64,000 bases of DNA, taken from the NCBI GenBank assembly GCA_910579775.1, contig CAJTUE010000003.1, forward strand, positions 79,653 through 143,652, in the 5' to 3' direction. Of the stretch, positions 920 through 60,764 are shown in pieces (position 1 is the first letter of the stretch; each line of letters starts with the position of its first letter). The translations under genes and the position numbers were made by a program. The notes below the pieces were generated by a model. It saw nothing but the letters and a program-made list of their open reading frames with translations, had not been told where the DNA came from and searched no databases. This stretch comes from an uncultured Oscillospiraceae bacterium. GTDB lineage: Bacteria; Bacillota; Clostridia; Oscillospirales; Oscillospiraceae.

Positions 920-3118
920 TTACTGCGCGGGGGTAAAAAAATCGGTGTAGTTGGTGAGGATCTGAGCCAGCTCGGCGCGGGTAGCAGTGTCACCGGGAGC
1001 CAGCAGGTTGCCGGTCTTACCGGAGACCACCTTAGCGCCCACAGCCCACTGGAAGCCGGGGATGGCCCACTCGGTGAGCGCCTCACCGTCGGCAAAGTCC
1101 AGCAGATTGACTTCTTCAGAAGCGGTGTGGCCCTTCTTCTCCGCATAGCGGGCAAGGATGGTGACCAGCTCGGCGCGGACCACAGCCCGGTCGCCCTCAA
1201 AGCCATTACCGGTCCCGGTGGTCAGTTCCATCTGCTCGGCCCAGCGCGCGGCGTTCTCATACCACTTGCCCTGGGCGTCGGGGAAGGTAGCCATCTTGTT
1301 GGTGACCTCTGGCTTGCCCTCCAGGTTGTAGAGGGCCTGGAACACCGTGGCCCGGGTAACAACAGCGTCAGCGTCAAAGCCGTTGCCGGTAGAGGACATC
1401 AGGCCCTTGTCCATAACATTCTTGGCGGCGGCGGTATACCACTGCCCCGCCTCCAATCCTACATACTTCACATGGATGCGGCCCTGGGGCGCGGCATAGG
1501 TCTCGCCCACAACACCGTCCAGCTTCTCGGTAATGAAAGCCATGAGCGCCTCGTCCAGAGGCACGCCGGTGTCCACAATGTTCTCGGAGGTGGAGAAGGT
1601 ATAGTAGGTGTCGCCGCCGGCAGCCACGAAGTCGTTGGTGATGACGGCATAGGTGGCGTTGGCATCAAAGTCCTTGCCGTTCACGCTGTCGATGGTGACG
1701 CGGTTGATGGACTTGGGCGCGGCATAGGTAGTGCCCTCGTAGTTCTCGCCCGCGTCAAAGACGGCGGCGGTGTCGATGGTAAACTCAATGCCGGAGACCT
1801 GGGGGAAGCCGCCCACGGCGGTGGGGGTGCAGAAGGTGGAAGCCTCCAGAGCCTCCAGCAGGGCTGCGCCCTTGATGTAGATGGTGGCGACGGTGTTGCC
1901 GAAGGGCAGGACCTTGTTCACGTCCTGGCGGGTGATGTCGCCGGCAGCGATGGCGGCGCGGATACCGCCGCCGTTGGTGACGGCGATGACGTGGTCATCG
2001 TCCACGTCCAGACCGCCGTCCTTGGTGACCTGCCAGACCATGGCGTCACAAATCAGGTCGCCCAGGTTGGTCTCCTCGGTGCGGTTGCCGGGGGCGCGCT
2101 CGCCGTTGAGGTCCACTTCGCTCTTGGCAAACACCTGGCCGTACAGCTCGTTCACCGCGTCCACCACGGCCTTGGCGGCCTCAGCAACGGTCTCGTCGGC
2201 CCCGGGAATGGCGTCCACGGGGACCAGCTCGGCGGTGATGTTCTTGTCGCCGTCGATGATGACCACGCCCACGTTGGCGATCTTGGTGCCGGTGGAGGTG
2301 ATGACGGTCTCACCCACCTTGTTGGAGTCGTTGGTCTTGGCCCTGATGTCAGCAATGGTGGAGTGGGAATGGCCGTCGATGAGGAGGTCGATGCCCTCCA
2401 CCTTGGCCAGCAGGTCGATGGAGCGGTTGCCGTTGGCAGCGGACTCGTCGTCGATGCCCAGGTGGGACAGGCAGACGACCAGGTCCACGTTCTCCTTCTT
2501 CAGCGCCTCCACCTCAGCCTTGGCGACGGCATACAGCTCCTCGCCGCCCTCAAAGGTCACGCCCTTGATCTTGGCGGGGTGGGCCTTGGTAGCGGTCTCG
2601 GGGGTGTCCAGGCCGAACAAACCGATCTTCTTGCCGCCCTTCTCGATGACCACGTGGTCGCCGAAGGCCAGCTTGCCGTCAAACTTGATGTTGGCGGCCA
2701 GAACAGGGAACTCAGCCAGCTCCGCCAGGGTCTTGAGGTTCTCATAGCCGTAATCGAACTCATGATTGCCGGGGGCTACCGCCTCGTAACCCGCCAGGTT
2801 CATCAGCTCCACGGCGCTCTTGCCCTCGGAAACGCTGACGTAGGTCTCCCCCTGGGAGAAGTCGCCCGCGTCCACCAGCAGCACATGGGCACCGGCGTCG
2901 GCAAACCTCTTCTTCAGGGTGGCGACCTTGGCGTAGTTCTCCACCGCCCCATGGACGTCGTTGGTGTGCAGGATCACGATCTTCCCCTCCACGTCAGCAG
3001 GGACAGTGTAGGGAGCGGTCACAACAGGGGTCTCCTCCTCGCCATCCACCGCAAGCGCGGGGATCGCCAGGGAGAAGAACATCGCCATGACCAGCAACAG
3101 GGACAAAAACTTCTTCAT
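920..3118 (-). CDS. secreted 5'-nucleotidase / metallophosphoesterase with three C-terminal SLH domains
   Basis: 732-aa ORF with RBS AAAGGTGA and signal peptide MKKFLSLLLVMAMFFSLAIPALA. Metallophosphoesterase motifs HTNDVHG, GDFSQG, GNHEFD and DGHSH are present, followed by a 5'-nucleotidase C-terminal region. The last ~190 aa hold three SLH-type repeats (QWYTAAAKNV.., KWYENAARWA.., LTEWAIPGFQWA..). Confidence 0.85.
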   Translation of the reverse strand: MKKFLSLLLVMAMFFSLAIPALAVDGEEETPVVTAPYTVPADVEGKIVILHTNDVHGAVENYAKVATLKKRFADAGAHVLLVDAGDFSQGETYVSVSEGKSAVELMNLAGYEAVAPGNHEFDYGYENLKTLAELAEFPVLAANIKFDGKLAFGDHVVIEKGGKKIGLFGLDTPETATKAHPAKIKGVTFEGGEELYAVAKAEVEALKKENVDLVVCLSHLGIDDESAANGNRSIDLLAKVEGIDLLIDGHSHSTIADIRAKTNDSNKVGETVITSTGTKIANVGVVIIDGDKNITAELVPVDAIPGADETVAEAAKAVVDAVNELYGQVFAKSEVDLNGERAPGNRTEETNLGDLICDAMVWQVTKDGGLDVDDDHVIAVTNGGGIRAAIAAGDITRQDVNKVLPFGNTVATIYIKGAALLEALEASTFCTPTAVGGFPQVSGIEFTIDTAAVFDAGENYEGTTYAAPKSINRVTIDSVNGKDFDANATYAVITNDFVAAGGDTYYTFSTSENIVDTGVPLDEALMAFITEKLDGVVGETYAAPQGRIHVKYVGLEAGQWYTAAAKNVMDKGLMSSTGNGFDADAVVTRATVFQALYNLEGKPEVTNKMATFPDAQGKWYENAARWAEQMELTTGTGNGFEGDRAVVRAELVTILARYAEKKGHTASEEVNLLDFADGEALTEWAIPGFQWAVGAKVVSGKTGNLLAPGDTATRAELAQILTNYTDFFTPAQ

Positions 3119-3283: not shown

Positions 3284-4126
3284 TCAAGGGGCGGAGGCGG
3301 GCAGGACGATATGAAACACCGTGTCCTCTCCGGTGGACTCCGCGGCGATGGAGCCGCCGTGGCTATCCACGATCTCCTTGGCGATGGCCAGGCCCAACCC
3401 CGCCCCGCCGGTGCGGGTGGAGCGGGCGGCGTCCAGACGATAAAACCGCTCAAAAATATTGGACAGCTCCTTTTCCGGGATGCCCAGCCCCCGGTTGGCG
3501 ATGCGGATGTGGACCCTTCCCTCCTCCAGCGAGGCGGTGAGGCGGATGGTCCCGCCCTCGTGGGAGTAGCTCACGGCGTTTCGCAGCACGTTGTCAAAGA
3601 CCCGGGCCAGCTTGTCCGCGTCCCCTACCGCGGCCAGACCGGGGGCAATGTCCGCCTCCAGTTTCAGTCCCTTGTTCTCCAGCAGGGGGTAAAATTCGTC
3701 GGTGATCTGTTCCAGTAGCAGGGTAAGCTGAACGGTTTCCCGTTTGTCGCTGTCCTGATGGAGCTCCATGCGGGAAATATCAAAAAATTCCTCCAACAAA
3801 CTCTCCAGGCGGCGGGCTTTCTCCAAAGCCACCGCAGTGTAGCGCTCCCGCTCGGCCGGGTAGAGACCGGGCTTGTCGCTCAAAAGGGTGAGATACCCCA
3901 CCACAGAGGTCAAGGGTGTCTTCAGGTCGTGGGCCAAAAAGGCCACCAGGTCCTTCTTTCGCTTCTGCTCCTGCCGCGCCGCCTCCCGCTGGATCTCCAG
4001 TTCATCCCTCACCGCCTTCAGCTCCCGGTCCACCCGCCGCCAGCGGCGAAAATACTTCACCAGGAAAACCACCGCCGCCAACAGCAGCAGCGCCAGAAAC
4101 CCGATCCAAAAGTGCATGATCTTCAC
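3284..4126 (-). CDS. sensor histidine kinase (HisKA + HATPase_c) with a single N-terminal TM helix and no partner response regulator
   Basis: 280-aa ORF with RBS GAGGTGA. It has one TM helix (FWIGFLALLLLAAVVFLV), a charged coiled-coil linker, H-box FLAHDLKTPLTSV, an N box LRNAVSYS and G boxes IANRGLGIP / GGAGLGLAIAKEIV. Confidence 0.85.
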   Translation of the reverse strand: MKIMHFWIGFLALLLLAAVVFLVKYFRRWRRVDRELKAVRDELEIQREAARQEQKRKKDLVAFLAHDLKTPLTSVVGYLTLLSDKPGLYPAERERYTAVALEKARRLESLLEEFFDISRMELHQDSDKRETVQLTLLLEQITDEFYPLLENKGLKLEADIAPGLAAVGDADKLARVFDNVLRNAVSYSHEGGTIRLTASLEEGRVHIRIANRGLGIPEKELSNIFERFYRLDAARSTRTGGAGLGLAIAKEIVDSHGGSIAAESTGEDTVFHIVLPASAP

Positions 4127-4152
4127 CTCTCAGCTCTTACGTCAGTACAGGC

Positions 4153-4180
4153 AAGGCCACCGGCAAATGCCGGTGGCCTT
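4153..4180 (-). terminator. strong hairpin after the 376-aa SLH gene (probable operon end)
   Basis: aaggccaccgg / ccggtggcctt, an 11-bp stem with a 6-nt loop. The U-tract on the minus strand is weak. Confidence 0.5.
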
Positions 4181-4201
4181 GAAAACGCTTTGATGCGCGG
4201 C

Positions 4202-5332
4202 TTATTCGCCGTCCTGAACGATCTGGTCGGTGCCCGCCAGAGGGCCTGCGTCGGTCAGATCGTCATGGTAACGCCAACGCTCGTCGATCCAGCACTGGCT
4301 CCAGTGCTCCGGCAGAGTCTGCTTGTCCGGACCAGTGTAGGTCAGGGCGTGGTCGTTGGCCGCCTCGATAATCTCATAATAGGCCCAGTGGTTGGCGGGA
4401 ACGTCGGGCCAGGTCATGTACTCGTCGGTGCCGTCCTCGGTGTTGTTGCTGGCTACGCCGGAGTGGACATACTCGCTCAGTTCACTGAGGCCGTCGGCAT
4501 CTACGCCCCGGTAGAGGTAGGCGTTGAATACCTTCACCGCCTCGTCACGGCGAATGTTGTTCAGCGGCTTGAAAGTGCCGTCGGTGTAGCCGTCGATCCA
4601 ACCCGCGCCGGTGGCCAGCTTCAGGCCCTCCTTGGCCCAGTCGCCCACGTCCGCCATGTCGTCGAAGTCGTCCTTCTCCACCAGGCCAACGGGAATACGG
4701 TCCATCTTCGTGGCCAGACGGGCCACGGCGGTGACGTACTCCTGCCGGGTGATGGGCGCGTCTGGCTGGAAGGTCCCGTCCAGGTAACCATTGAACACAT
4801 CGAACTTGGAACAGTAGGCGATGGCGGACTCGGCCCAGTGACCGGCCACATCGCTGTAGTTACCGGGGTTACCGTAGTTGGCCCCTTCCTCAAAGCCCTG
4901 CAGTCCCGCCCGGGCGATGATGGTGGCCACGCTGCCCCGGGTGATGAAGTCACCGGGGCCGAACTGGCCGTTGGGATAACCGATGACATAGTGCTGATGA
5001 TAGGGGGCATAAACGGCGTAGAAGGTAGTGTCCTTGGTGACCCGCTCCGCGGTGGGGTCCACCAGGGGAGCCACCTCCCCCACCTTCAGCTTGGAGGGGT
5101 CGGTCAGGGACCAGCCCAGGAAGGTCCGCCGGTCCAGCGGAGTGACCTTGGGCACATGAGCGGGCTTGGTGTCCTGGGGAACGGCCTCGGAAGTGAGGTC
5201 GCTGGAGGTGCCGCCCACGCCCAGGTTGTAGTCCACGGAGACAGGACACCCCGCCGCGGCGGCGCTGAGCGCCGTCGCGGTGAGGATGGTCATAGTCAGA
5301 AGCAGGGCGAGAAGTCTTTTCGCGTTCTTCAT
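4202..5332 (-). CDS. secreted protein with one InlB-B/Flg_new repeat plus SLH repeats; a free-standing paralogue of the giant protein's anchor module
   Basis: I prefer the ATG at 5330-5332, 8 nt after AGGAGG (5341-5346), over the GTG of the ORF track (5341). Signal peptide MKNAKRLLALLLTMTILTATALSAAAA. Listeria-Bacteroides-type repeat (..RRTFLGWSL..TTFYAVY). SLH motifs include YSDVAGHWAESAIAYC...TRQEY. It is about 70% identical by eye to the last ~350 aa of the 5,922-aa protein. Confidence 0.8.
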   Translation of the reverse strand: MKNAKRLLALLLTMTILTATALSAAAAGCPVSVDYNLGVGGTSSDLTSEAVPQDTKPAHVPKVTPLDRRTFLGWSLTDPSKLKVGEVAPLVDPTAERVTKDTTFYAVYAPYHQHYVIGYPNGQFGPGDFITRGSVATIIARAGLQGFEEGANYGNPGNYSDVAGHWAESAIAYCSKFDVFNGYLDGTFQPDAPITRQEYVTAVARLATKMDRIPVGLVEKDDFDDMADVGDWAKEGLKLATGAGWIDGYTDGTFKPLNNIRRDEAVKVFNAYLYRGVDADGLSELSEYVHSGVASNNTEDGTDEYMTWPDVPANHWAYYEIIEAANDHALTYTGPDKQTLPEHWSQCWIDERWRYHDDLTDAGPLAGTDQIVQDGE

Positions 5333-5348
5333 GATACGCACCTCCTAC

Positions 5349-8300
5349 TTAATGGAGCCAGACGCGGAAGCCCGCGGATAACAGAGCGGCGTTGGGACCG
5401 CCGTCGTTCAGGTCATCGTGGTAACGCCAGCGCTCGTCGATCCAGCACTTGTCCCACTCCTCGGGCAGGGTATAGCCCAGCTCGGACTCGAAGTCAGGCA
5501 CGAACTCGTGGTCGTTGGCAGCTTCCACGATCTCATAGTAGGCCCAGTGGCCCTGCGGCACGTCAGGCCAGGTCATGTACTCGTCGGTACCGTTGCCGGT
5601 GACGTTGCTGGCAACGCCGGAGTGGACATATTCGTGGAGCTTGCGCAGCCCGTCGGCGTCCACGCCGCGGTTCAGATAGGCGTTGAAGACCTTCACGGCC
5701 TCGTCACGGCGGATGTTGTTCAGCGGCTTAAAGCTGCCGTCGGTGTAGCCGTTGACCCAGCCCTTCTTGTAGGCGGTGTAGATGCCGCCCAGAGCCCACG
5801 ACCCGGCCTCGTCGATGTCGGTGAAGTCCATCTCACCGGGGGTCATGACGCCGTCCAGACGGGCGATGACCAGGGCGAACTCCTGACGGGTGATAGGCTG
5901 GTTGGGCTTGAAGGTACCGTCGGTGTAACCCTCAAAGACGCCGTACTTGGAGCAGTAGGCAATGGCGCTCTCGGCCCAGTGTCCAGCCACGTCGGTGTAG
6001 CCGCCGGGGTTGCCGTAGTTGGAGCCTTCCTTAAAGTCGGGCAGGATGGCCCGGGCGATGATGGTGGCCACGCTGGCGCGGTCGATGTTATCGGCGGGGC
6101 CGAAGTTGCCGTTGGGATAGCCGATGACATAGTGCTCATGATAGGGCCGCTCGATGATCACCGCGTAGAAGGTCATGGTCTCACCCTTGGCCGTCACGGT
6201 CTTGGGATCCACCAGTTCGATCTTCTCACCCTTCTTCAACGTGGCGGGGTTGGTCAGAGACCAGCCGCGGAAGACGTAGCCGTCCAGAGCGGTGACCGTG
6301 GGCACCTTGCTGGGCCGGCTGCTCTCGCTCACGTCCTCAATGGTGGCGTCAGCGGTGACGCCGTGGATACCCACATGGTAGAGCACCTTGCACGGGCAGG
6401 TCTCCACCACACCGCCGCCACCGCCGGGAGAGCGGATGGTGATCTGGAACACGTAGGTGGACTGGATCGTTCTCGCGTCCTCCGGATCGTCCGCATTGGC
6501 CTTACCCAGAGCCAAGAGGGTCAGAGAATAGGTCCCGACCTTCGAGGTGTCCGCTGCGCTCAGATCGAGGACAACGCTCTGCTTGGCGCCGTCCACGGTG
6601 AGGTCAAAGCCTGTGGGCAACGTGCCCAGAGTGGCTCCGATCCCGTTTTCGGCAGAGGAAGTGATCGTATCCTGTGCCACCGTCCACTGTACGTCGTAGA
6701 CATTCGCACCATACGCGCCCAGGTTGATGGTGTAGCTGCCCAGCCCGGTAGCGCCCTGCATGACGGAAACGGTGCGGCGGTCATCCACCTTGGGGCCGGT
6801 CGTATCGGCCGGGTCGCTGCCGTCCTTCACGTCGTCGTGCATCAGGTAGGGTATCTTCTGTGTGATGTGGATAATGTGGTCGCCGTCCTCAGGATCACGC
6901 TCCACCTCCGGGTCGGGCGTGAGGTGGTCTGTAACGGTCAAGTCTGTGTTCTCGGTAATGTCCTCCTTGACGTCGGGAGTCGTGTCATCTTCTTCAGCGT
7001 AGACGTAGTTGGGATCGATGGTCACGTCCACCTTGACTTCCGTGTGCTTGCCGTCAGGCTCGCCGGGTTCAGGCTTCCAGGTGACGGTCACGTCCTGGAT
7101 GGGCACGTTGCCCTTGTCGTCCGGCGTTTCATTATCCACCGGCTCGTCGTCCTCGGTGGTTCCCTTCACCTCGGTAGGCTCGGTCTCGGGATCGGTAACG
7201 GTCACGTCTACCTTGGTGATGACCTTGGGATCGACCATAACGATCAGCTCATAAGTGGCCGTCACGTCAGGTTCGCCGCCCTCTGCGGCCAGCTCCGCAT
7301 TGGAGTAACCGGTAAGGGTAAACTTCGCGTGATGCTCGCCCACCCAAAGCTTTCCGCTCACAGGGGCCAGCTCCAGAACAAAAGTCTTTTCTCCGTCGCC
7401 AGAGGCAAACTGACCGTTGGTAAAGGTGGGATACGCACTGCCTTCCGCCAGCTTAAAGCCGGTCAGCTCATCCACCGTAAACACTGTGCCATGAATGGCC
7501 GCGTCCAGACTATGGAGCTTCACGGTGTACTGCGGTTCCACGTCCAGATAGGTGATGCGCTCGTTCTTACGGAAAGTCTCGTTGGTGTACGCCATGGCTT
7601 CGGGCGCCGTGGTAAAGGTCCCGTCGTAGCCCTCCGGCTTTTCCACCAGACTGTAGTCCGTGTCAAACTCGCCGGGCTTCAGCACATTCTCCACGTCGGC
7701 AAAATTCCGGATGATATCCGCAAACTCTGCGCCCACAGGAGGCTTGGCAATGGTGATGGTCATGTCGGTGACCGCCGCGGCGTAGTTCCACTTCTCCTCC
7801 GCCGTATCCGGCTTGTAGGTGAAGGTGAATCTATAGGTGCTGGGTTCCCCGGTACCTTGGAAGCGGGTGGGCGCCACCGTCCACGTGCCCTTATCGTAAA
7901 CGCCGCTGTCGTTGTTGGTCACATCGCCCGCATGACCGGTCGTATCGATCTGCGTGGCGGCTTGATCGTGAACGTTCTCGTAAGCAAACAGATGCTTGCG
8001 CACCGTCTCGTTGTACATGGGCACGCCGTTTTCATCCACAGGGATAAAGCTTCCGGCTGTATTCGCCGCCACATAGGCGTCGCCGCGCTTCACAGAAGTG
8101 TCCTGTGCTGCCGCGTGCGTCACAGCCAACTGGCCGGGCTCCACGTTGACCGTATAGGTCACGTCCTTGGATTTTCCGGCGTTGGTGGTAATGCGAACGG
8201 TAAGGACGACCTCGTTGTCCACTGCGCCGGCCTCGGCATAGGTCGCCTTGGTGCCGTCCTCTACCTGAACGTTGGTGTTCACAGGGGACTTGACGCTGAA

Positions 8301-23117: not shown

Positions 23118-26100
23118 TTCATTGTCCTCCTAGTCAGGAATGCGATAATGGGTCCGGCCATGGTCACGGTCACGGACGGTTTTCGGTCGGTCGGTTCGTC
23201 AGGTATGTCCTCCAACGTCCCTGCTGCCTGCAGGGGGGCCTCCTCCGGCCCGATGAGGGCATCGGGCCCTACAGGCTCCTCCAGCGTCGCCGCGCCAGGA
23301 GCCTCTACGGTCACGGGGTCGCCGCGCCCTACGGGGGTCGCGTCGGGCAGGTCATCCAGGGGGACGTTCTCGTCCTCCGGGGCTTCCTCCAGGCTCAGGA
23401 GGCTGGCGCGGGTGGCCTTTTCCTTCCACACCCACGGCGCGTTCTCCTGGGTCGCCCAAGCCTCACATTCCTCTGTGGTGGGCATGATCCAGCCCGACTC
23501 TACATCGTTGAGATGGAGCAGCACATATTGGAACTCCGCCCACGTCGGCGGGGTCACCCACTTGCGGTTGGTCGCCGCGCCGGTGATAAACTCCTTCTTC
23601 CGGTTGGAGGTGTTCAGGGCGGTCATCACCTGCCACAAGAGGTCCTGCTTATCCCCACTGAACATTTCCGCGGCGGCGATCACGTCGCTGTCGTTCGGTC
23701 CCTTGCGCAGCAGCAGGGTGTCCTTCAGCTTATCGTCCGTCAGGTCATAGACAAACCCCGCGGGGTTGCCCGCGGTCTTCTTGAAGTAACCGATGGCGGA
23801 GGTCATAAAGTCGCCCCACTCTGTGGCGTCTGGCCGCACCGCCTCATACTCGACCTTTCCGCCGGTGACCCACATCCACCCGTAATTCTCCTTCTCCGCC
23901 GCGCATTCCTCTGTGGGCGGCATGATCCAGCCCGACTCCACATCGTTCAGATGGAGCAGCACATATTGGAATTCCTCCCAGGTCGGCTTATTCACCCACC
24001 TGCGGTTGGTCGCCGCGCCGGTGATAAACTCCTTCTTCCGGTTGGAGGTGTTCAGGGCGGTCATCACCTGCCACAAGAGGTCCTGCTTATCCCCACTGAA
24101 CATTTCCGCGGCGGTGATCACGTCGCTGTCGTTCGGTCCCTTGCGCAGCCGCAGCACATCCTTCAGCTTTTCGTCCGTCAGGTCATAGACAAACCCCGCG
24201 GGGTTGCCCGCCGTCTTCTTGAAGTAGCCGATGGCGGAATCCAGGAAAGCGTCCCATTCCGCCGGGTCTGCAAACAGCTCTTCCTTCTTGACCTCTTCCT
24301 CCGGCTTTTTGTCCGCGTTGAACCACCAGTAGGCGTCCACGCCGTCCACAATGACCTCCGCCTTGACCTCCGCGTCCGTCTTATAGACGCCGTTCAAGAG
24401 CAGATACTGGAGCTGGTAATCCGTCAGCCCCGTCAGGCTGTCATAGGTCAGGGTGGGATCGGCCGCAGCCGCCGCGCGCAGCGTGCTCAAAAGGGCGTTC
24501 TTAAACGCCTCAATGCTGGTAAAGGCCGCGCCGTCCGCGTTCACGCGCATAGCCATGCCTGGGTCGGTAACCGAGGGCCGGCGGGTGATAAAGTCCAGAT
24601 CGAGGATCTGGTCCATGGCGTCGGTAGCTGTCTTGCCGTCAAAGCCCACCGCCGCCAGCCAGGCGGCCTGGGCCAGGGTGGCGTGGGTGTCGGCGGTGAA
24701 GCCACTGCCCTGCCACCAGTAGTTTTCCGTGATGCTGGCCGCGGTCTGATAGCTGCTGCCGGGGAAGAGGAGGTGCTGCACCTCCTTCGTCAGGTCCGCG
24801 GCGCTCTGGGAAGCGACGGCGTCCAGATCCTTGTAGGGCAGGCCGCCGCCCGTCTTGCGCACGACCTCCATGATCCGGGCGCGCAGGTCGGCATAGCTCT
24901 CGTCGGTGAAGGGCATGCCGTGGACCTCCGCGCGCAGCTTCAGCCGCTCCAGGGTGGCGGCGTCCAGCTTGCCCAGGGGGTCGATGGCCAGAGGCTGCAT
25001 CGCCCCGTCCACCTCCACGCCGTCCCTGGCCCAGTAGGCGTAGGTGAGCAGGTCCATAATGTCGCCGATGCGCTGGGCCTCGGTGGGGGTGTGGGGCTCG
25101 GGGATCCACCAGTAGTTGCACACCACGTCCGGGTCGGCGGGGTCGGCGATCTTGTCCGCGGGCGGAATGGGCTGGCCCACCAGCTTGTTGGCGTTAATAA
25201 GCAGATATTGCAGCTGGTAAATATCCAGGGCGTACTCTCCCGAGGGCAGCTTCCTCAGGCTGCCGTCCAGGCTCAAAAAGTCGTTCATGTTGTCCACAAA
25301 GCCCAGCACCTTCAGCGCCAGCTCCAGGGAGGTCTTAAACTGCTCCACGCTGGTAAAGCCGCTGCCCGCGGCGGTGCGGCGGAGATAGACCTCGTTATTG
25401 ACGGGGGTGATCCCCTTGGCCAGGAGGGTGTCCAGCTTGGTGGAGTCGGTGTAGTTGCTGGCCCGCCAGGCGTCCGCCGCCTCCATCAGCCGCTCGTAGG
25501 TGAGCCGCGGCTGGCCGCCGTTCTTCCACCAATAATTCTTTTCCTTGAGGATCTCCTCCGCGGTCTTGTAGTCTCCCGCCGGCTGGATCAGAGCGTATTG
25601 GATCTCCTCCCAGGGGATAGTCTCCCACACGTCCATCACCGTCTTGGGGTCGGAGAGGTCATAATGGGCGCTGAGGGTGGTCAGCGCCTTGAGCCAGGCG
25701 GTCTTGAACTCCGCCAGGGTGGTAAAGGCGTTGTCGTCCTCCTCCGACTCCTCCTTGCGGAACCACCCCACATTTTGTGGAGTTTCGTTCCCGGTGGGGG
25801 GCGCGTAGCTGATCAATTCTGTCAAAGCGTTGGGCAGGTTCTCCTCCGTCATGGCGTCCAGGGCGTCGGGCACATCCCCTGAGACCACCAGCATGCCGCC
25901 CTCGATAAAGTCCTTCCAGCCGGTCACCGGGCGTTTGCCGCCGTTTTGCCACCAGTAGGTCTTGCCCGTGGTGGGCCAGGTCCCGGTGATGAGCAGCTCC
26001 TGCACCTGCTCCGCGGTGATCTGCTTCATGGCGTCCTGGTCCAGGCCCGCCGCCGCCAGAATGTCGTATACCTTCTCCAGCGCGTCCAGCATCTCCTGGC

Positions 26101-30229: not shown

Positions 30230-32377
30230 ATGTCAACCGTTATCACCCACAAGCAGTTCCCCAACCGCAAGACCTGGTCCATGGACCTCTGCGGCCGCAA
30301 GCTGTCCATCGAGATGGGCCGGGTGGCCGAGCTGGCCAACGCCAGCGCCATTGTCACCTACGGTGAGACCACCGTTCTGGTGGCCGTCACCGCCGCGCCC
30401 CGTCCCCGGGACGGAGTGGACTTCTTCCCCCTGAGCGTGGACTTTGAAGAGAAGCTGTACGCCGTGGGCCGCATCCCCGGCTCCTTCATGCGCCGGGAGG
30501 GTCAGCCCTCTCTGCCCGCGGTGCTGGCCAGCCGGGTCATCGACCGCTCCATCCGCCCCCTGTTCCCCTACGACTACCGCAACGACGTGGTGGTGACCTG
30601 CACCGTCATGAGCGTAGACCGGGACTGCTCTCCCGAGATGACCGCCATGTTCGGCGTGTCCGCCTGTCTGGCCGTCAGTGACATCCCCTGGGCCGGCCCC
30701 ATCGGCTGCCTTGAGGTGGGCTATGTGGACGGTCAGATCGTCATGAATCCCACCCAGGCCCAGCGTCATGCCTCCCAGCTGGACCTCACCGTCGCCGCCA
30801 GCCAGGAGAAGGTCATCATGATCGAGGCGGGCGCCAAGGAGCTGCCCGACGACATTATGTACGACGCCATCTGCCAGGCCCACGAGGAGGCCAAGAAGCA
30901 GGTGGCGCTCATCAACCAGATGGTCAGCGAGATCGGCAAGGAGAAGATGACCTACGACCACGCCGCCTTTGACCAGGAGTTGTTCGACAAGATCGTGGCC
31001 GACTTTATGGACGAGGCCAAGGCCGCCATGGACACCGACGACAAGAACGTGCGGGAGAGCCGCTGGAACGCCATGATCGAGAAGTGGCACGAGAAGTATC
31101 TGGACGACCATCCCGACATGGACCAGTTCCTGGAGGAGATCACTTACAAGTTCCAGAAGAAGATCGTCAAGGCCTGGCTGCTGGAGGGCCACCGGGTGGA
31201 TGGCCGCGCCAAGAACGAGATCCGGCCTCTGGCCGCCGAGGTAGGCGTCCTGCCCCGGGTCCACGGCTCCGGCCTCTTCACCCGCGGCCAGACCCAGGTG
31301 CTGTCCATCTGCACCCTGAACACCCTGGCCGCCACCCAGAAGCTGGACACCATCTGGGAAGAGGAAGAGAAGCGGTATATGCACCACTACAACTTCCCCT
31401 CCTTCTCCGTGGGCGAAGCCCGGGCCAGCCGCTCCACCAACCGCCGGGAGAAGGGCCACGGCGCCCTGGCTGAGCGGGCGCTGGAGCCGGTCATCCCCAG
31501 CGTGGAGGACTTCCCCTACGCCATCCGCGTGGTCTCCGAGGTGGTCAGCTCCAACGGCTCCACCTCCCAGGGCTCTATCTGCGGCTCCACCCTGGCTCTG
31601 ATGGACGCGGGCGTGCCCATCTCCGCCCCCGTGGCAGGCATTTCCTGCGGCCTCATCCAGGACGACAACGGCGGCTTCACCACCTTTATCGACATCCAGG
31701 GCGTGGAGGATTTCCACGGTGAGATGGACTTTAAGGTGGCAGGCACCAAGAAGGGCATCACCGCCATCCAGATGGACATCAAGAACGACGGCCTCAGCCA
31801 CGCCATCATCAAGGAGGCGCTGGAGATCACCCGGGACGCCCGCTTCGCCATTCTGGATGAGATCATGCTCCCCTGCATTGCGGAGCCTCGCCCCGAGGTG
31901 AGCCGCTACGCCCCCAAGATGCTCACCATGAAGATCGACGTGGACAAGATCCGCGAGGTCATTGGCAAGGGCGGCAGCGTCATCCAGAAGATCACCGCCG
32001 AGTCCGGCGCTCAGGTAGACATCGATGAGGACGGCACCATTCACATCGCTTCCCCCGATGCGGAGAAGTGCGACGTGGCCAAGAAGATGATCGAGACCAT
32101 CGTCTTTGTCCCCGAGGTGGGCCAGCTCTACTACGGCAAGGTGGTCCGCATCCTTCAGTTCGGCGCGTTTGTGGAGCTTGCGCCCGGTAAGGACGGCATG
32201 GTCCACATCTCTAAGCTGGCAAACCACCGTGTGGAGAAGGTGGAGGACGTGGTGAACATCGGAGACATGATCTGGGTCAAGGTCACCGACATCGACGAGA
32301 AGGGCCGGGTGAACCTCTCCTATAAGGACGCCCTCAAGGAGCTGGAGAACCGCGGCGCGAAGGCCCCGGAAGTGTGA
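30230..32377 (+). CDS. pnp: polyribonucleotide nucleotidyltransferase (PNPase)
   Basis: ATG at 30230 after AAAGGAG, 715 aa. Two RNase PH-like domains followed by KH and S1 regions (..GKGGSVIQKI.., ..YYGKVVRILQFGAFVEL..). Confidence 0.95.
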   Translation: MSTVITHKQFPNRKTWSMDLCGRKLSIEMGRVAELANASAIVTYGETTVLVAVTAAPRPRDGVDFFPLSVDFEEKLYAVGRIPGSFMRREGQPSLPAVLASRVIDRSIRPLFPYDYRNDVVVTCTVMSVDRDCSPEMTAMFGVSACLAVSDIPWAGPIGCLEVGYVDGQIVMNPTQAQRHASQLDLTVAASQEKVIMIEAGAKELPDDIMYDAICQAHEEAKKQVALINQMVSEIGKEKMTYDHAAFDQELFDKIVADFMDEAKAAMDTDDKNVRESRWNAMIEKWHEKYLDDHPDMDQFLEEITYKFQKKIVKAWLLEGHRVDGRAKNEIRPLAAEVGVLPRVHGSGLFTRGQTQVLSICTLNTLAATQKLDTIWEEEEKRYMHHYNFPSFSVGEARASRSTNRREKGHGALAERALEPVIPSVEDFPYAIRVVSEVVSSNGSTSQGSICGSTLALMDAGVPISAPVAGISCGLIQDDNGGFTTFIDIQGVEDFHGEMDFKVAGTKKGITAIQMDIKNDGLSHAIIKEALEITRDARFAILDEIMLPCIAEPRPEVSRYAPKMLTMKIDVDKIREVIGKGGSVIQKITAESGAQVDIDEDGTIHIASPDAEKCDVAKKMIETIVFVPEVGQLYYGKVVRILQFGAFVELAPGKDGMVHISKLANHRVEKVEDVVNIGDMIWVKVTDIDEKGRVNLSYKDALKELENRGAKAPEV

Positions 32378-32662
32378 GCGTAGACACATAGCCGTGGATG
32401 GACCGGAGCGAGGGCCGAATTGGTAAGGCGGCAAAGCCGCCGCGATTTGGCCCGAGACGTAGGGAAGCCACGGCGTGATGTGTCCAACGCGAACATGACA
32501 AGGAAGTGTGAGCGTAGACACATAGCCGTGGATGGACCGGAGCGAGGGCCGAATTGGTAAGGCGGCAAAGCCGCCGCGATTTGGCCCGAGACGTAGGGAA
32601 GCCACGGCGTGATGTGTCCAACGCGAACATGACAAGGAAGTGTGAGCGTAGACACATAGCCT
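32372..32662 (+). repeat. 134-nt long-hairpin element, 2 tandem copies plus a 23-nt partial third, in the pnp 3' UTR
   Basis: gtgtgagcgtagacacatagcc starts at 32372, 32506 and 32640, giving an exact period of 134. The first copy contains the pnp stop codon. Confidence 0.9.
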
Positions 32663-32689
32663 CTCGCCCACCCCCTGCACACACAGATC

Positions 32690-32726
32690 AAAAGCCCCTC
32701 GACCAGTGGTCGAGGGGCTTTTTTCG
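32690..32726 (+). terminator. intrinsic terminator of the pnp transcript (downstream of the repeats)
   Basis: aaaagcccctcgacc - agt - ggtcgaggggctttt, followed by a T-run. Confidence 0.85.
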
Positions 32727-32824
32727 CCTGTTTCCTTGACTTTTCTTCCCCCAGCGGCTACCATAGAGACACCGCCCGCAAGGCTGAGGGCAAATCGATC
32801 CACACACCCAAGGAGGGGACTTCT

Positions 32825-33863: not shown

Positions 33864-33908
33864 AAAACACCCCGTTATCTTTTTGGTCAAGATAACGGGG
33901 TGTTTTTC
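33864..33908. terminator. bidirectional terminator hairpin
   Basis: aaaacaccccgttatc / gataacggggtgtttt, flanked by A/T runs on both sides. Confidence 0.8.
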
Positions 33909-33915
33909 CATTCTA

Positions 33916-34106
33916 GAGTTGTCACGCTCCCGTTGGACACACTACGGCTTCGCGTCTCGCCTTTCGGCTCGGTCAGCTCGTAGCTCGGGCCCCACCGGGG
34001 CCCACTCGCCCCTCCGACTCGGGGCAGATCGCGCGGCCCTTGGCCGCTTACCAATTCGCCCCTCGCTCCGGTCCATCGAAGCCTGTGTGTCTACGGGTCG
34101 CACTTC
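33916..34106 (-). repeat. 191-nt member of the same long-hairpin element family, in the prfB 3' UTR
   Basis: The reverse complement begins gaagtgcgacccgtagacacac..gatggaccggagcgaggggcgaattggtaag.. and ends ..gtgtgtccaacgggagcgtgacaac. It is collinear with the 134-nt unit plus a ~57-nt internal insertion. Confidence 0.8.
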
Positions 34107-35228
34107 TTACTTTTCTACCCAACTCCCCGTGGCTTCGCAGGACAAATAGGCGTTGATGAAGCCGTCCAGGTCGCCGTCCATGACGGAATTGATGTTGGCG
34201 GTCTCGTAGCCGGTGCGGGTGTCCTTGACCAGCTGGTAGGGCATGAAGACGTAGGAGCGGATCTGACTACCCCATTCGATCTTCATCTGCACGCCCTTGA
34301 GGTCGGAGATTTTTTCCGCATGGGCCTGCATCTGCAGCTCTACCAGCTTGGAGCGGAGCATCCGCATACAGGTGTCCCGGTTCTGGAACTGGGAACGCTC
34401 CTGCTGGGAGGACACCACAATACCCGTGGGCTTATGGATGAGGCGAACGGCGGATGAGGTTTTGTTGATGTGCTGGCCGCCCGCGCCGGAGGAACGAAAC
34501 ACCTGCATCTCCACGTCCTCGGGGCGGATGTCCACCTCCACGTCGTCAGGGATCTCAGGCATGACCTCCAGAGCGGCGAAGGAGGTCTGCCGTCTGGCAT
34601 TGGCGTCGAAGGGGGAGACACGCACCAGCCGGTGGACGCCATTTTCTCCCCGCAGGAAGCCGTAGGCGTTTTCTCCGGTGATCATAATGGTGGCGGATTT
34701 CAATCCGGCCTCGTCGCCCTCCAGGTAATCCACGGTCTCGCAGGTGAACCCATGGCGTTCCGCCCAGCGGGTGTACATGCGAAAGAGCATCTGGGCCCAG
34801 TCCTGGGCCTCGGTTCCCCCCGCCCCGGCGTGGAAGGTGAGGATGGCGTTGGCGTTGTCATACTCCCCGGTCAGGAGGGTAGCCAGCCGCGCGGACTCCA
34901 CGTCCTCCTCCAGGGCTCTGCAGCCCTCGGACAGCTCAGGGAGGAGGGAAGCGTCCTCCTCCTCGTTGCCCATCTCGCAAAGGGTGACCAGATCGGACCA
35001 GCTGCGCTCCCGCTTGGCCTGGTTCTCAATCTTGTCCTGAAGGGCCTTGATGCGCTGCTGGGTCTTTTGAGCCTTGTCCGGGTCGTCCCAAAAGCCGGGG
35101 GCGGCGGACTGTGACTGGAGCAGATCCAGCTCCCGGGCCGCCTGGTCCAGGCCCAGGGAAGCCTTCAGGGTTTCCAACTGAGGTTTGAAGTTGTTGAGCC
35201 AAACCTTGTATTCGTCAAATTCCAGCAT
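34107..35228 (-). CDS. prfB: peptide chain release factor 2, encoded in a single frame
   Basis: 373 aa with the SPF motif (VRVSPFD) and the GGQ motif (SGAGGQHINK). The N-terminus ..LKASLGLDQAARELD.. is continuous where many prfB genes carry CTT TGA C. Confidence 0.95.
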   Translation of the reverse strand: MLEFDEYKVWLNNFKPQLETLKASLGLDQAARELDLLQSQSAAPGFWDDPDKAQKTQQRIKALQDKIENQAKRERSWSDLVTLCEMGNEEEDASLLPELSEGCRALEEDVESARLATLLTGEYDNANAILTFHAGAGGTEAQDWAQMLFRMYTRWAERHGFTCETVDYLEGDEAGLKSATIMITGENAYGFLRGENGVHRLVRVSPFDANARRQTSFAALEVMPEIPDDVEVDIRPEDVEMQVFRSSGAGGQHINKTSSAVRLIHKPTGIVVSSQQERSQFQNRDTCMRMLRSKLVELQMQAHAEKISDLKGVQMKIEWGSQIRSYVFMPYQLVKDTRTGYETANINSVMDGDLDGFINAYLSCEATGSWVEK

Positions 35229-39129: not shown

Positions 39130-39650
39130 GGCGCGGCTTCCCAGACGCGCCGCTCCTTGCGGTCTGGGACCGCTGGCCTTTCTGGGAGACTATCTTTTCC
39201 ATCCTCGAAAAGATAGCCCCCAGACCCCCAGAAAAGAGGCCAAAGGGGGCAATCCGAGAGCCCCCTTTGGAAACCCCTTCGGCCAAAGAGGGGGTCCTCG
39301 GTCCCCCTCTGTCGGATACTCCCCCTGGAGAGTCTTCTTGCCAGGTAGGATGGTCGTCTCGGCTTACTCCGTAACGCCGCGCCGACACGGGCCGCCCTGT
39401 CCTTCGTAGGGCGCGCCTTGTCCTTGACCTTGGCCCCTTTGGCAAAGGAGCTGTCAGCCGACAGACTGACTGGGGATTGTGCCCTTGTGCTGTACCTGAC
39501 AATCCCCAGTCATTTGCTTCGCAAATGCCACCCTCTTTTTAAAGGGTGCTTGTAGACCGCGCCGCCATCCACCATCCTACATTCCGGGCGGGGCAAGCCC
39601 CGCCCCTACGGTAGGATATGGGCTGTGAGGCAGCGGCCAGGGGCAGCGCT
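39126..39650. repeat. 0.5-kb non-coding array of at least 8 consecutive GC-rich hairpins / short repeats
   Basis: Inverted repeats at 39140-39168, 39190-39216, 39242-39268, 39288-39309, 39469-39510 (12-bp perfect stem), 39513-39525, 39529-39548 and 39574-39617 (the last containing gggcgggg-caag-ccccgccc). Confidence 0.7.
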
Positions 39651-60647: not shown

Positions 60648-60764
60648 ACGTTCCGGGAGGGGCAAGCCACTCCCCTACATCACCTATGGTAACGTTCGTG
60701 TCCATAGGGGCGGGGCTTGCCCTGCCCGCCGATTCTCATCTGCCCTTCGTAGGGCCGGGTTTGG
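60648..60764. repeat. GC-rich repeat remnants related to the 39.1-39.65 kb array
   Basis: ttccgggaggggcaagccactcccctac resembles ttccgggcggggcaagccccgcccctac (39583-39610). ccttcgtagggcc resembles ccttcgtagggcg (39401-39413). Also contains ggggcggggcttgccctgccc. Confidence 0.55.

Follow-up and report, generated by a model that had tools for sequence, protein, structure and literature searches.

In a 64,000-nt stretch of contig CAJTUE010000003.1 from an uncultured Oscillospiraceae bacterium (hereafter the window), we found that pnp, the gene of polynucleotide phosphorylase (PNPase), runs into a tandem repeat of long hairpins. With a probability of about 0.68, we read this repeat as a two-unit array of a dispersed family of structured intergenic repeats in gut Oscillospiraceae, similar to the REP/BIME or MIRU repeats, which is transcribed into 3' untranslated regions (UTRs) and serves as a generic hairpin after the stop codon. 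The family resembles REP/BIME, ERIC or MIRU in its behaviour, matches none of them, and appears to be uncatalogued. An earlier note, made from the sequence of the window alone, had proposed either a stability or autoregulatory device for pnp or a repeat like REP or a miniature inverted-repeat transposable element (MITE); the distribution after many genes speaks against the former, and the data favour the latter. The Oscillospiraceae abound among gut commensals; few genetic tools exist for them and, to our knowledge, hardly any of their non-coding elements have been described.

Tandem Repeats Finder reported a repeat with a period of 134 at 32368-32661 (2.2 copies, 100% matches, no indels), and a repeat search placed the 134-nt units at 32368-32501 and 32502-32635, with the first 26 nt occurring again at 32636-32661. 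The period and the two full copies given in the earlier note are therefore correct, while the partial copy is 26 nt long instead of the 23 nt stated there. The layout is A-X-A-X-A, where A is the 26-nt segment GGAAGTGTGAGCGTAGACACATAGCC and X has 108 nt, and the pnp frame closes with GAA GTG TGA at 32369-32377, within the first unit. A single unit forms one long nested and bulged hairpin, as had been proposed, with an energy of -66.9 kcal/mol (shuffles -41.2 +/- 3.4, z = -7.6, 0 of 200 shuffles as good); its helix begins 4 nt inside the element, and the reverse strand folds more weakly (-52.5 kcal/mol, z = -4.8). The third A copy pairs with the nucleotides after it to form a small hairpin of its own (32640-32653/32662-32671). 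Folding both units jointly (32360-32735) gave a minimum free energy structure that is a domain-swapped giant hairpin, joining the 5' half of unit 1 with the 3' half of unit 2; it is thermodynamically equal to two separate hairpins, and we did not treat it as informative. Identical tandem units could in principle misfold onto each other in RNA, or extrude as a large cruciform in DNA.

The intrinsic terminator of pnp lies at 32690-32724, with an 11-bp G+C stem (32694-32704/32708-32718) extended by A-U pairs and followed by TTTTTT at 32719-32724; it was seen in the sequence and in the fold, although a simple consensus scan did not list it. It comes only after the units, which supports the previous claim that they should be transcribed with pnp. 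The units themselves are followed by AAGGAAG... or by varied sequence, and the real terminators of the window copies stand 28-55 nt farther on; with no U run directly after the hairpin, the unit was rejected as an intrinsic terminator in its own right. Both at pnp and at prfB, where a second copy is found, neither a promoter nor a terminator signal is present between the stop codon and the strong terminator, and because of this position the window copies should be transcribed within the 3' UTR.

The comparison of PNPase C-termini bears out the idea that the last pnp codons are element sequence and that the native 3' end was remodelled. In relatives without the element the protein ends ...GAKK*, ...GAKKD* or ...NPGLKK* and the terminator follows directly, whereas the window protein ends ...GAKAPEV*; family members elsewhere all begin GAAGYG(T/C)GA. 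Because of these two facts, the comparison shows, at the level of sequence, that the element replaced the ancestral ...GAKK* by ...GAKAPEV* and supplied the last two codons of pnp together with its stop. Within the 90%-identity cluster of the window PNPase the end varies (APEA, APEL, APEM, GAEG), as expected if the basal RNA helix, rather than the protein, sets the constraint on the last residue. In a different species (L090), the element occupies the same place after pnp and the protein ends ...GAKAPEEA*, while in a close relative (L128) ...APEL* is followed by a degenerate remnant of the element 5' end and then by the terminator.

Among contigs with identical PNPase and otherwise identical flanks, the window and L002 have two units, L001, L003-L005 and L008-L010 have one, and L006 and L007 have none, so the two-unit arrangement is present in two independent assemblies. 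The zero-unit alleles keep exactly one A segment of 26 nt as their sole element sequence, which forms with the next 10 nt a small hairpin like the distal "mini" units of other arrays. Because this 5' fragment is retained, L006 and L007 are best taken as deletion derivatives rather than true empty sites. The earlier note had named the same pnp codons without the element as a finding that would speak against remodelling; an identical PNPase without a full unit does exist in these two contigs, yet the 26-nt fragment is still there. Short-read assemblers may merge two units into one, which makes the pnp allele frequencies unreliable, while with k > 26 no assembly error could produce the zero-unit junction.

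Because the two pnp units are 100% identical, we infer that they arose recently, by unequal recombination or replication slippage at the identical 26-nt 5' segments, and that the zero-unit allele arose by the same process. A one-unit A-X-A(mini) allele would give either A-X-A-X-A or A alone when recombination is unequal, or replication slips, between the 26-nt repeats. Differences in the number of whole units are present at no fewer than seven other orthologous sites (at least 7), with ratios of 1:2, 1:2:3 and more complex mosaics. Adjacent units are arranged head-to-tail with a spacing of 2-9 nt, and within arrays the intact units tend to be gene-proximal and the decayed ones distal, with apparent growth at the gene-proximal end.

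Miniature units of about 40 nt, in which only both termini and the basal helices are kept, were observed at L023 6913-6955, L039 1852-1893 and L072 6582-6623. The one in L023 closes the open reading frame (ORF) of PEP carboxykinase (...AAGPEV*), and at both ends it is almost the same as the window pnp unit, though it comes from another metagenome-assembled genome (MAG). In the spacer between a peptidase U32 gene and the next gene, with flanks 97-98% identical, L039 carries a family member (4020-4203) and L120 a different hairpin pair (1397-1564, reverse strand). The first hairpin of that pair is a perfect palindrome, GAAGCTGTAC...GTACAGCTTC, with a GAAGC start directly after TAA. This suggests that different hairpin elements may turn over at one site.

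The second copy in the window, a diverged member 1.4 kb from the pnp array, starts right after the prfB TAA and ends 14 nt before the prfB terminator. An additional branch of 53 nt is inserted at ~33957-34009, on the 3' side of its conserved internal loop. In comparison with the pnp unit, the stems of this copy show compensatory changes and its loop sequences are identical. The copy was found in all 13 same-species contigs examined, among which variation is too low for a test of compensatory evolution in situ. In another species (L045), an array stands directly after the prfB TAA. Since pnp in L090 and prfB in L045 are also occupied, and L128 carries a remnant at pnp, both sites are old, with their contents turning over. 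No further copies were detected in the 64-kb window by a filter-free covariance-model search.

The family extends well beyond this locus. Scanning for the shared loop motif in one genome per species yielded 13 genuine matches, all in Oscillospiraceae/Clostridia MAGs and at least 9 of them in one MAG, and a metagenome scan gave 94 loci, in which the covariance model R1, built from 14 copies, had 140 matches. At the loci of the seed copies, the model also recovered additional members, diverged, tandem or miniature. In total, more than 150 further copies were found across Oscillospiraceae/Clostridia MAGs and gut metagenomes, so that the search for copies and covariation genome-wide and in relatives, which had been suggested from the window, was successful. 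Matches in L012, L017 and L026 (Bryobacterales, Acidimicrobiaceae and Acidobacteriota) agree with the pattern only and were discarded as chance. The window PNPase and release factor 2 (RF2) match only proteins named "Oscillospiraceae bacterium" from MAGs, and the contigs come mostly from mouse-gut samples. A scan of Rfam 15, also suggested beforehand, yielded no family that matches the element: there was no match in the whole window at gathering thresholds, nothing on the pnp units at E <= 10 (weak IhtA and NsiR1 matches concern the terminator hairpin only), and only rRNA and tRNA matches at 14 further array loci. The family had no match in viral contigs or in phage and plasmid records (pattern scan and BLAST), and literature searches for the core motif, or for MITEs in Oscillospiraceae, found nothing.

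The consensus unit has about 130 nt (125-140 nt) and nine helices. Its termini are conserved (5' GAAGYGYGAG..., 3' ...GCGTGACA; family consensus gaAgcGcg... / ...GCGTGAca), and conserved purine-rich internal loops face each other, GGACCGGAGCGAGG opposite CGAGACGGAGGGAAG, with atGGAcCGgAGCGAGG and cGAGaCGGAGgGAAgcC as the loop strands of the family consensus; the apical stem-loop can vary or be exchanged. In the seed alignment (MAFFT/RNAalifold), 23 of the 43 pairs are compensatory, with both sides changed. Among 120 distinct copies, 88.6% of the cells are paired and both-side changes occur in 40 of the 43 pairs; the covariation score is 0.47, as compared to 0.13 for column shuffles and 0.03-0.08 for slid 3' partners. 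Because G-U pairs exceed A-C mismatches (279 vs 104, or 177 vs 104 without one invariant G-U), the fold belongs to the sense strand as written. The ends of the element pair within the hairpin yet are only loosely inverted repeats, and no longer element with these ends was seen, with no dedicated search made for one. A likeness to the sarcin-ricin region of 23S rRNA was put down to chance; just one 8-mer is common with the 23S fragment in L115.

The position of the element relative to genes was evaluated from the longest same-strand upstream ORF and the first base of the element in 98 non-redundant arrays. The stop ends at offset 0 in 14 arrays (stop, then GAAG), at -3 in 11 (usually stop, a purine-rich triplet, GAAG) and at +1 in 4 (TAG sharing the element's first G), while in-frame internal stops give offsets of +3 in 7, +9 in 10 and +15 in 3. 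These internal stop codons occupy element positions 1-3, 7-9 or 13-15. Frame 1 of the element reads GAA GYG TGA GCG TAG, in which the TGA at positions 7-9 and the TAG at 13-15 close an incoming ORF after 2-4 added residues. The mirror analysis on the antisense side of the 98 arrays was flat, without a peak. In three arrays the first base follows the CCA end of a tRNA gene of the same orientation, at distances of 0, 0 and 4 nt, and a further array, within an rRNA operon, begins at the 23S rRNA 3' end. Of the arrays in co-directional gene pairs, a crude longest-ORF call puts 19 in sense and 6 in antisense orientation. Deletion bias alone was judged insufficient as a cause of this abutment, as the offsets peak at 0 and -3 instead of spreading from -1 to -10, and 3' spacers remain.

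Members thus sit after the stop of a co-oriented gene and before the terminator or the next cistron, with many copies per genome. The upstream genes are mostly highly expressed housekeeping genes, encoding PPDK, PGK, TIM (tpi), iPGM (pgm), PGI, PEPCK, the beta subunit of oxaloacetate decarboxylase and AspRS (aspS), and several members sit between glycolytic cistrons. The same group includes the genes of RF2, PNPase, dUTPase (dut), UPRTase (upp), FabH and RlmH, and one member follows a phage capsid gene. In L014, two members (1410-1543, plus strand; 4237-4369, minus strand) flank one 878-codon gene; one of them follows aspS on the opposite strand, and the other lies 4 nt past an upstream terminator and about 35 nt before the ribosome-binding site of the gene, so some copies occupy 5' leaders and not 3' UTRs.

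Such exact placement, together with the covariation, could mean that the element is a dedicated functional RNA, whose internal loops are the binding site of a specific protein or a core for catalysis or processing, which would define the 3' end of the RNA upstream or act on it; the element would then have spread because it is useful. The loops are invariant or nearly so while nearly all stem pairs covary, the fold is strand-specific and mostly in sense orientation, and the 5' end of the element coincides with the 3' boundaries of mature RNAs. Other species have retained the site at pnp (L090) and at prfB (L045), where the core is the same and the apical parts differ, and a hairpin of about -60 kcal/mol touching a CCA-encoding tRNA gene would presumably block exonucleolytic 3' trimming unless the RNA were cut there. 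However, where the stop is inside the element (positions 7-15), a cut at its first base would give non-stop mRNAs. Copy number varies freely among strains, including the zero-unit pnp allele, degenerate and miniature copies have survived, one copy runs antisense to the tRNA genes beside it, no ribozyme or protein-binding family of Rfam was matched, and the loop invariance is inflated by the search patterns. We consider a dedicated functional RNA unlikely.

Alternatively, the family could be a non-autonomous DNA transposable element, either a MITE or a single-stranded DNA hairpin substrate of the REP/RAYT or IS200/IS605 kind, in which case selection would favour a structure that a transposase recognises, the RNA effects would be secondary and the sense bias would reflect the co-orientation of genes and replication. 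Many copies per genome at unrelated sites are consistent with this, as are the same tRNA-Gln/tRNA-Lys spacer occupied in opposite orientations in two genomes, the orthologous intergenic region that holds different hairpin elements in two strains, the termini being the most conserved part across subfamilies, and the copy after a phage capsid gene; G-T wobble is tolerated in DNA hairpins as well. On the other hand, a target-site duplication of fixed length, as is typical of a MITE, was not found beyond chance in 67 well-bounded arrays, where the matches between flanks (none in 40, 3 nt in 12, 4 nt in 5) are near those of re-paired flanks. No conserved flanking target is visible around the arrays either. 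The GCGTGA shared by both ends was rejected as a target-site duplication, since GCGY is the self-complementary basal helix and no flank duplication is seen; it is also contradicted by the pnp relatives, which end AAG AAG TAA and not GYG TGA. A transposase or an autonomous copy was not seen in about 780 kb of flanks, which were not searched systematically, and the phage, plasmid and viral collections gave no matches. Reading frames and mature RNA ends, moreover, are not something that a DNA enzyme can recognise, so that selection alone would have to account for the abutment, and we give the transposable element much the same low weight.

A third possibility is an RNA-level module tied to RNA 3' ends, either a processing signal or ribozyme that defines the upstream end, or a retro-mobile RNA that template switching attaches by its 5' end to mature 3' ends (after stop codons, tRNA CCA or 23S rRNA) and that is copied back into genomic DNA. 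If the retro-mobile version is true, it would account for why the element abuts gene ends exactly, favours highly expressed genes and lies in sense orientation, and for arrays that are intact proximally and decayed distally. No systematic search was made for a reverse transcriptase, a transposase or an autonomous copy, and none of the latter two was seen in the flanks; the template and variable repeats of a diversity-generating retroelement were rejected, as the copies are identical and in tandem and the family is dispersed. We see in this module an outside chance. Far less probable is a pnp-specific device, in which stacked hairpins let PNPase sense or control its own mRNA. The location of the units in the pnp 3' UTR agrees with this, as do the stalling of PNPase, a 3'-5' exonuclease, at stable hairpins and the retention of the site in the related species L090. 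But the same element follows at least 20 unrelated genes as well as stable RNA genes, strains with identical PNPase carry 0, 1 or 2 units, and near relatives lack it entirely. In E. coli, furthermore, pnp autoregulation acts at the 5' leader through RNase III.

We therefore favour a generic structured repeat. Transcription would place the unit at the start of the 3' UTR, where it would fold in the RNA, and the sense-strand G-U bias together with the orientation bias indicate that selection acts on the RNA fold. Reportedly, in work by Newbury from 1987 and by Liang, Rudd and Deutscher from 2015, a REP element stabilises the upstream mRNA and, when it lies 15 nt or less from the stop, stalls ribosomes. 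A hairpin of -67 kcal/mol after the stop is likewise expected to block 3'-5' exonucleases. Intergenic stem-loops in Ruminiclostridium stabilise operon mRNA and direct its cleavage (PMC10311766), and by analogy a unit within an operon would be a likely endonuclease target. Stable structures directly after stops are under selection, most strongly in abundant genes (PMC7518266), and by the same kind of analogy the unit could be a "ribosome termination structure" (RTS) that insulates termination. After highly expressed genes it would then be harmless or mildly useful.

Several points weigh against this reading. A generic stabiliser would not need to abut stops, tRNA CCA ends and the 23S 3' end so exactly, and the abutment, the in-frame pattern, the loop conservation and the gene-proximal growth of arrays are explained neither by a generic stabiliser nor by simple DNA transposition. 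Loop conservation exceeds that of typical selfish hairpin repeats, which hints at a specific protein partner or a catalytic core; it is partly an ascertainment effect, since both collection scans demanded the conserved loop motifs in at least one copy per locus. One antisense copy fills a tRNA-Lys/tRNA-Gln spacer whose orthologue elsewhere holds two sense units. We also count here the lack of target-site duplication in the 67 arrays and of a transposase or autonomous relative in the flanks, under the limit given above. The stop offsets come from ORFs called mechanically in G+C-rich DNA, and the alignment of 120 copies (A3) was fitted to the model, which favours the structure, although the independent MAFFT/RNAalifold result on the seed agrees with it. 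Finally, all RNA-level functions of the unit are inferred.

Comparison with known systems places the family close to several of them. REP/BIME elements of E. coli and other Proteobacteria are extragenic, high-copy hairpin repeats in 3' UTRs and between cistrons, forming strain-variable arrays; they form part of the transcript of the gene upstream, shield it against 3'-5' exonucleases and, near a stop, disturb termination. The present family is likewise extragenic, clustered and present in many copies per genome, between the stop and the terminator or next gene. However, REPs are palindromes of ~35 nt (about 20-40 nt), occur in both orientations in BIMEs and are tied to RAYT transposases, whereas the present unit has ~130 nt, nine helices and large conserved loops, is arranged head-to-tail in one orientation, abuts or donates the stop and resides in a Firmicute host. 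No RAYT was seen in the flanks of 8-14 kb around the copies, which were not searched systematically. ERIC (IRU) and Correia/NEMIS elements are similar in being imperfect palindromes of 100-150 bp that are co-transcribed, form long RNA hairpins and are processed by RNases, altering mRNA stability. They insert in both orientations and have terminal inverted repeats, with a TA duplication and an IHF site in Correia, but they are not known to abut stops or to have strongly conserved loops, and they share no sequence similarity with the present family. Integron attC sites are imperfect palindromes of 57-141 bp in which structure is conserved over sequence; they fold from one strand and begin at or over the preceding stop. 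They were rejected here, as the element lacks the RYYYAAC/GTTRRRY cores (its ends are GAAGYG... / ...GCGTGACA), its copies do not stand in cassette arrays beside an integrase, and the neighbours are housekeeping and stable RNA genes.

MIRUs are dispersed head-to-tail units of strain-variable number between operon genes, placed on translation signals so that expression is little disturbed (PMC12548453). The present units are also head-to-tail and vary by strain, with 0, 1 or 2 at pnp and differences at the other loci described above. MIRUs, in contrast, have 46-101 bp, are not long hairpins and contain a small ORF that is coupled to the start codon next to it, while the present unit closes the upstream frame and is defined by an RNA-like structure. 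A through-ORF of the MIRU kind was rejected: 134 nt cannot be divided evenly into codons, a stop at positions 7-9 or 13-15 ends frame 1, and the sense strand has no ORF running through the unit. By analogy, MIRU may serve as a precedent for a repeat positioned on translation signals. The RTS, a stable fold directly after the stop that is strongest in highly expressed genes (PMC7518266), corresponds to both the placement and the host-gene bias seen here, with a unit of -66.9 kcal/mol, a helix starting 4 nt into the element and stop offsets clustering from -3 to +15. It is, however, a statistical property of unrelated local sequences, whereas the present family is homologous, mobile and multi-copy. 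In the cip-cel operon of Ruminiclostridium cellulolyticum, G+C-rich intercistronic stem-loops of selective RNA processing and stabilisation stabilise processed transcripts and signal endonuclease cleavage (PMC10311766); they are likened to the present units by description and are not reported as a repeat family.

The family rewrites the 3' ends of core genes, both C-termini and stops, and annotation pipelines will call it ordinary coding sequence. The natural series of 0, 1 and 2 units at pnp makes the effect on mRNA stability and termination directly testable. The arrays could be used like variable-number tandem repeat markers for strain typing in metagenomes, and they also cause assemblies to collapse. 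For a selfish repeat, it is unusual to have strongly covarying stems together with invariant purine-rich loops and to sit exactly at gene ends; these traits could lead to a new RNA-protein system or insertion mechanism. The features of the locus are collected in the table.

Table. Features of the pnp and prfB loci in the window, with the evidence for each
Feature	Coordinates	Strand	Evidence
pnp, polynucleotide phosphorylase, 715 aa	30230..32377	+	translation; Pfam RNase_PH x2, KH, S1; exact protein also in sequence collection
repeat unit 1, full family member, long bulged hairpin	32369..32500 (tandem period 32368-32501)	+	Tandem Repeats Finder; fold; covariance model R1, 151.3 bits, E 1.7e-37
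repeat unit 2, 100% identical to unit 1	32503..32634 (tandem period 32502-32635)	+	Tandem Repeats Finder; repeat search; R1 model; missing in one-unit alleles
distal, degenerate "mini" unit of the array: 26-nt third copy (32636-32661) and ~10 nt pairing with it	32636..32671	+	repeat search; allele alignment; fold
intrinsic terminator of the pnp transcript	32690..32724	+	sequence; 15-pair hairpin then U run in fold
prfB intrinsic terminator, downstream of the second element	33864..33906	-	fold -28.5 kcal/mol, z -7.3, then U run
diverged family member	33920..34106	-	inverted-repeat pairs; sequence; R1 match to core, 65.4 bits; fold -89.8 kcal/mol
prfB, release factor 2; stop codon abuts the second element	34107..35228	-	translation; Pfam PCRF + RF-1

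Some further repeats were observed at other places. In the rRNA operon spacer of L115 (680-930), the first 31 nt of tRNA-Lys, tgcgcctttagctcagttggtagagcaactg, occur twice, at ~680-712 and at the start of the intact tRNA-Lys gene (853-928). The copy at ~680-712 is followed by about 140 nt of unrelated sequence and may be a disrupted or partially duplicated tRNA gene. Within the window, 159-185 and 23247-23273 form a short G+C-rich inverted hairpin pair (27 nt, 93% complementary, GGCCCGAT...ATCGGGCC), and 39585-39611 and 60702-60728 form another inverted pair of the same length and complementarity (GGGCGGGGC..GCCCCGCCC, then CTACGG). Both 27-nt pairs may be terminators with a common motif, or another small repeat family. 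A 300-nt direct repeat at 23460-23759 and 23898-24197 (93% identical, starts spaced by 438 nt) is probably an internal gene duplication. Three collinear direct-repeat blocks of 79-82% identity, about 1150 nt apart, link 4242-5005 with 5395-6146, which is the signature of adjacent paralogous genes.

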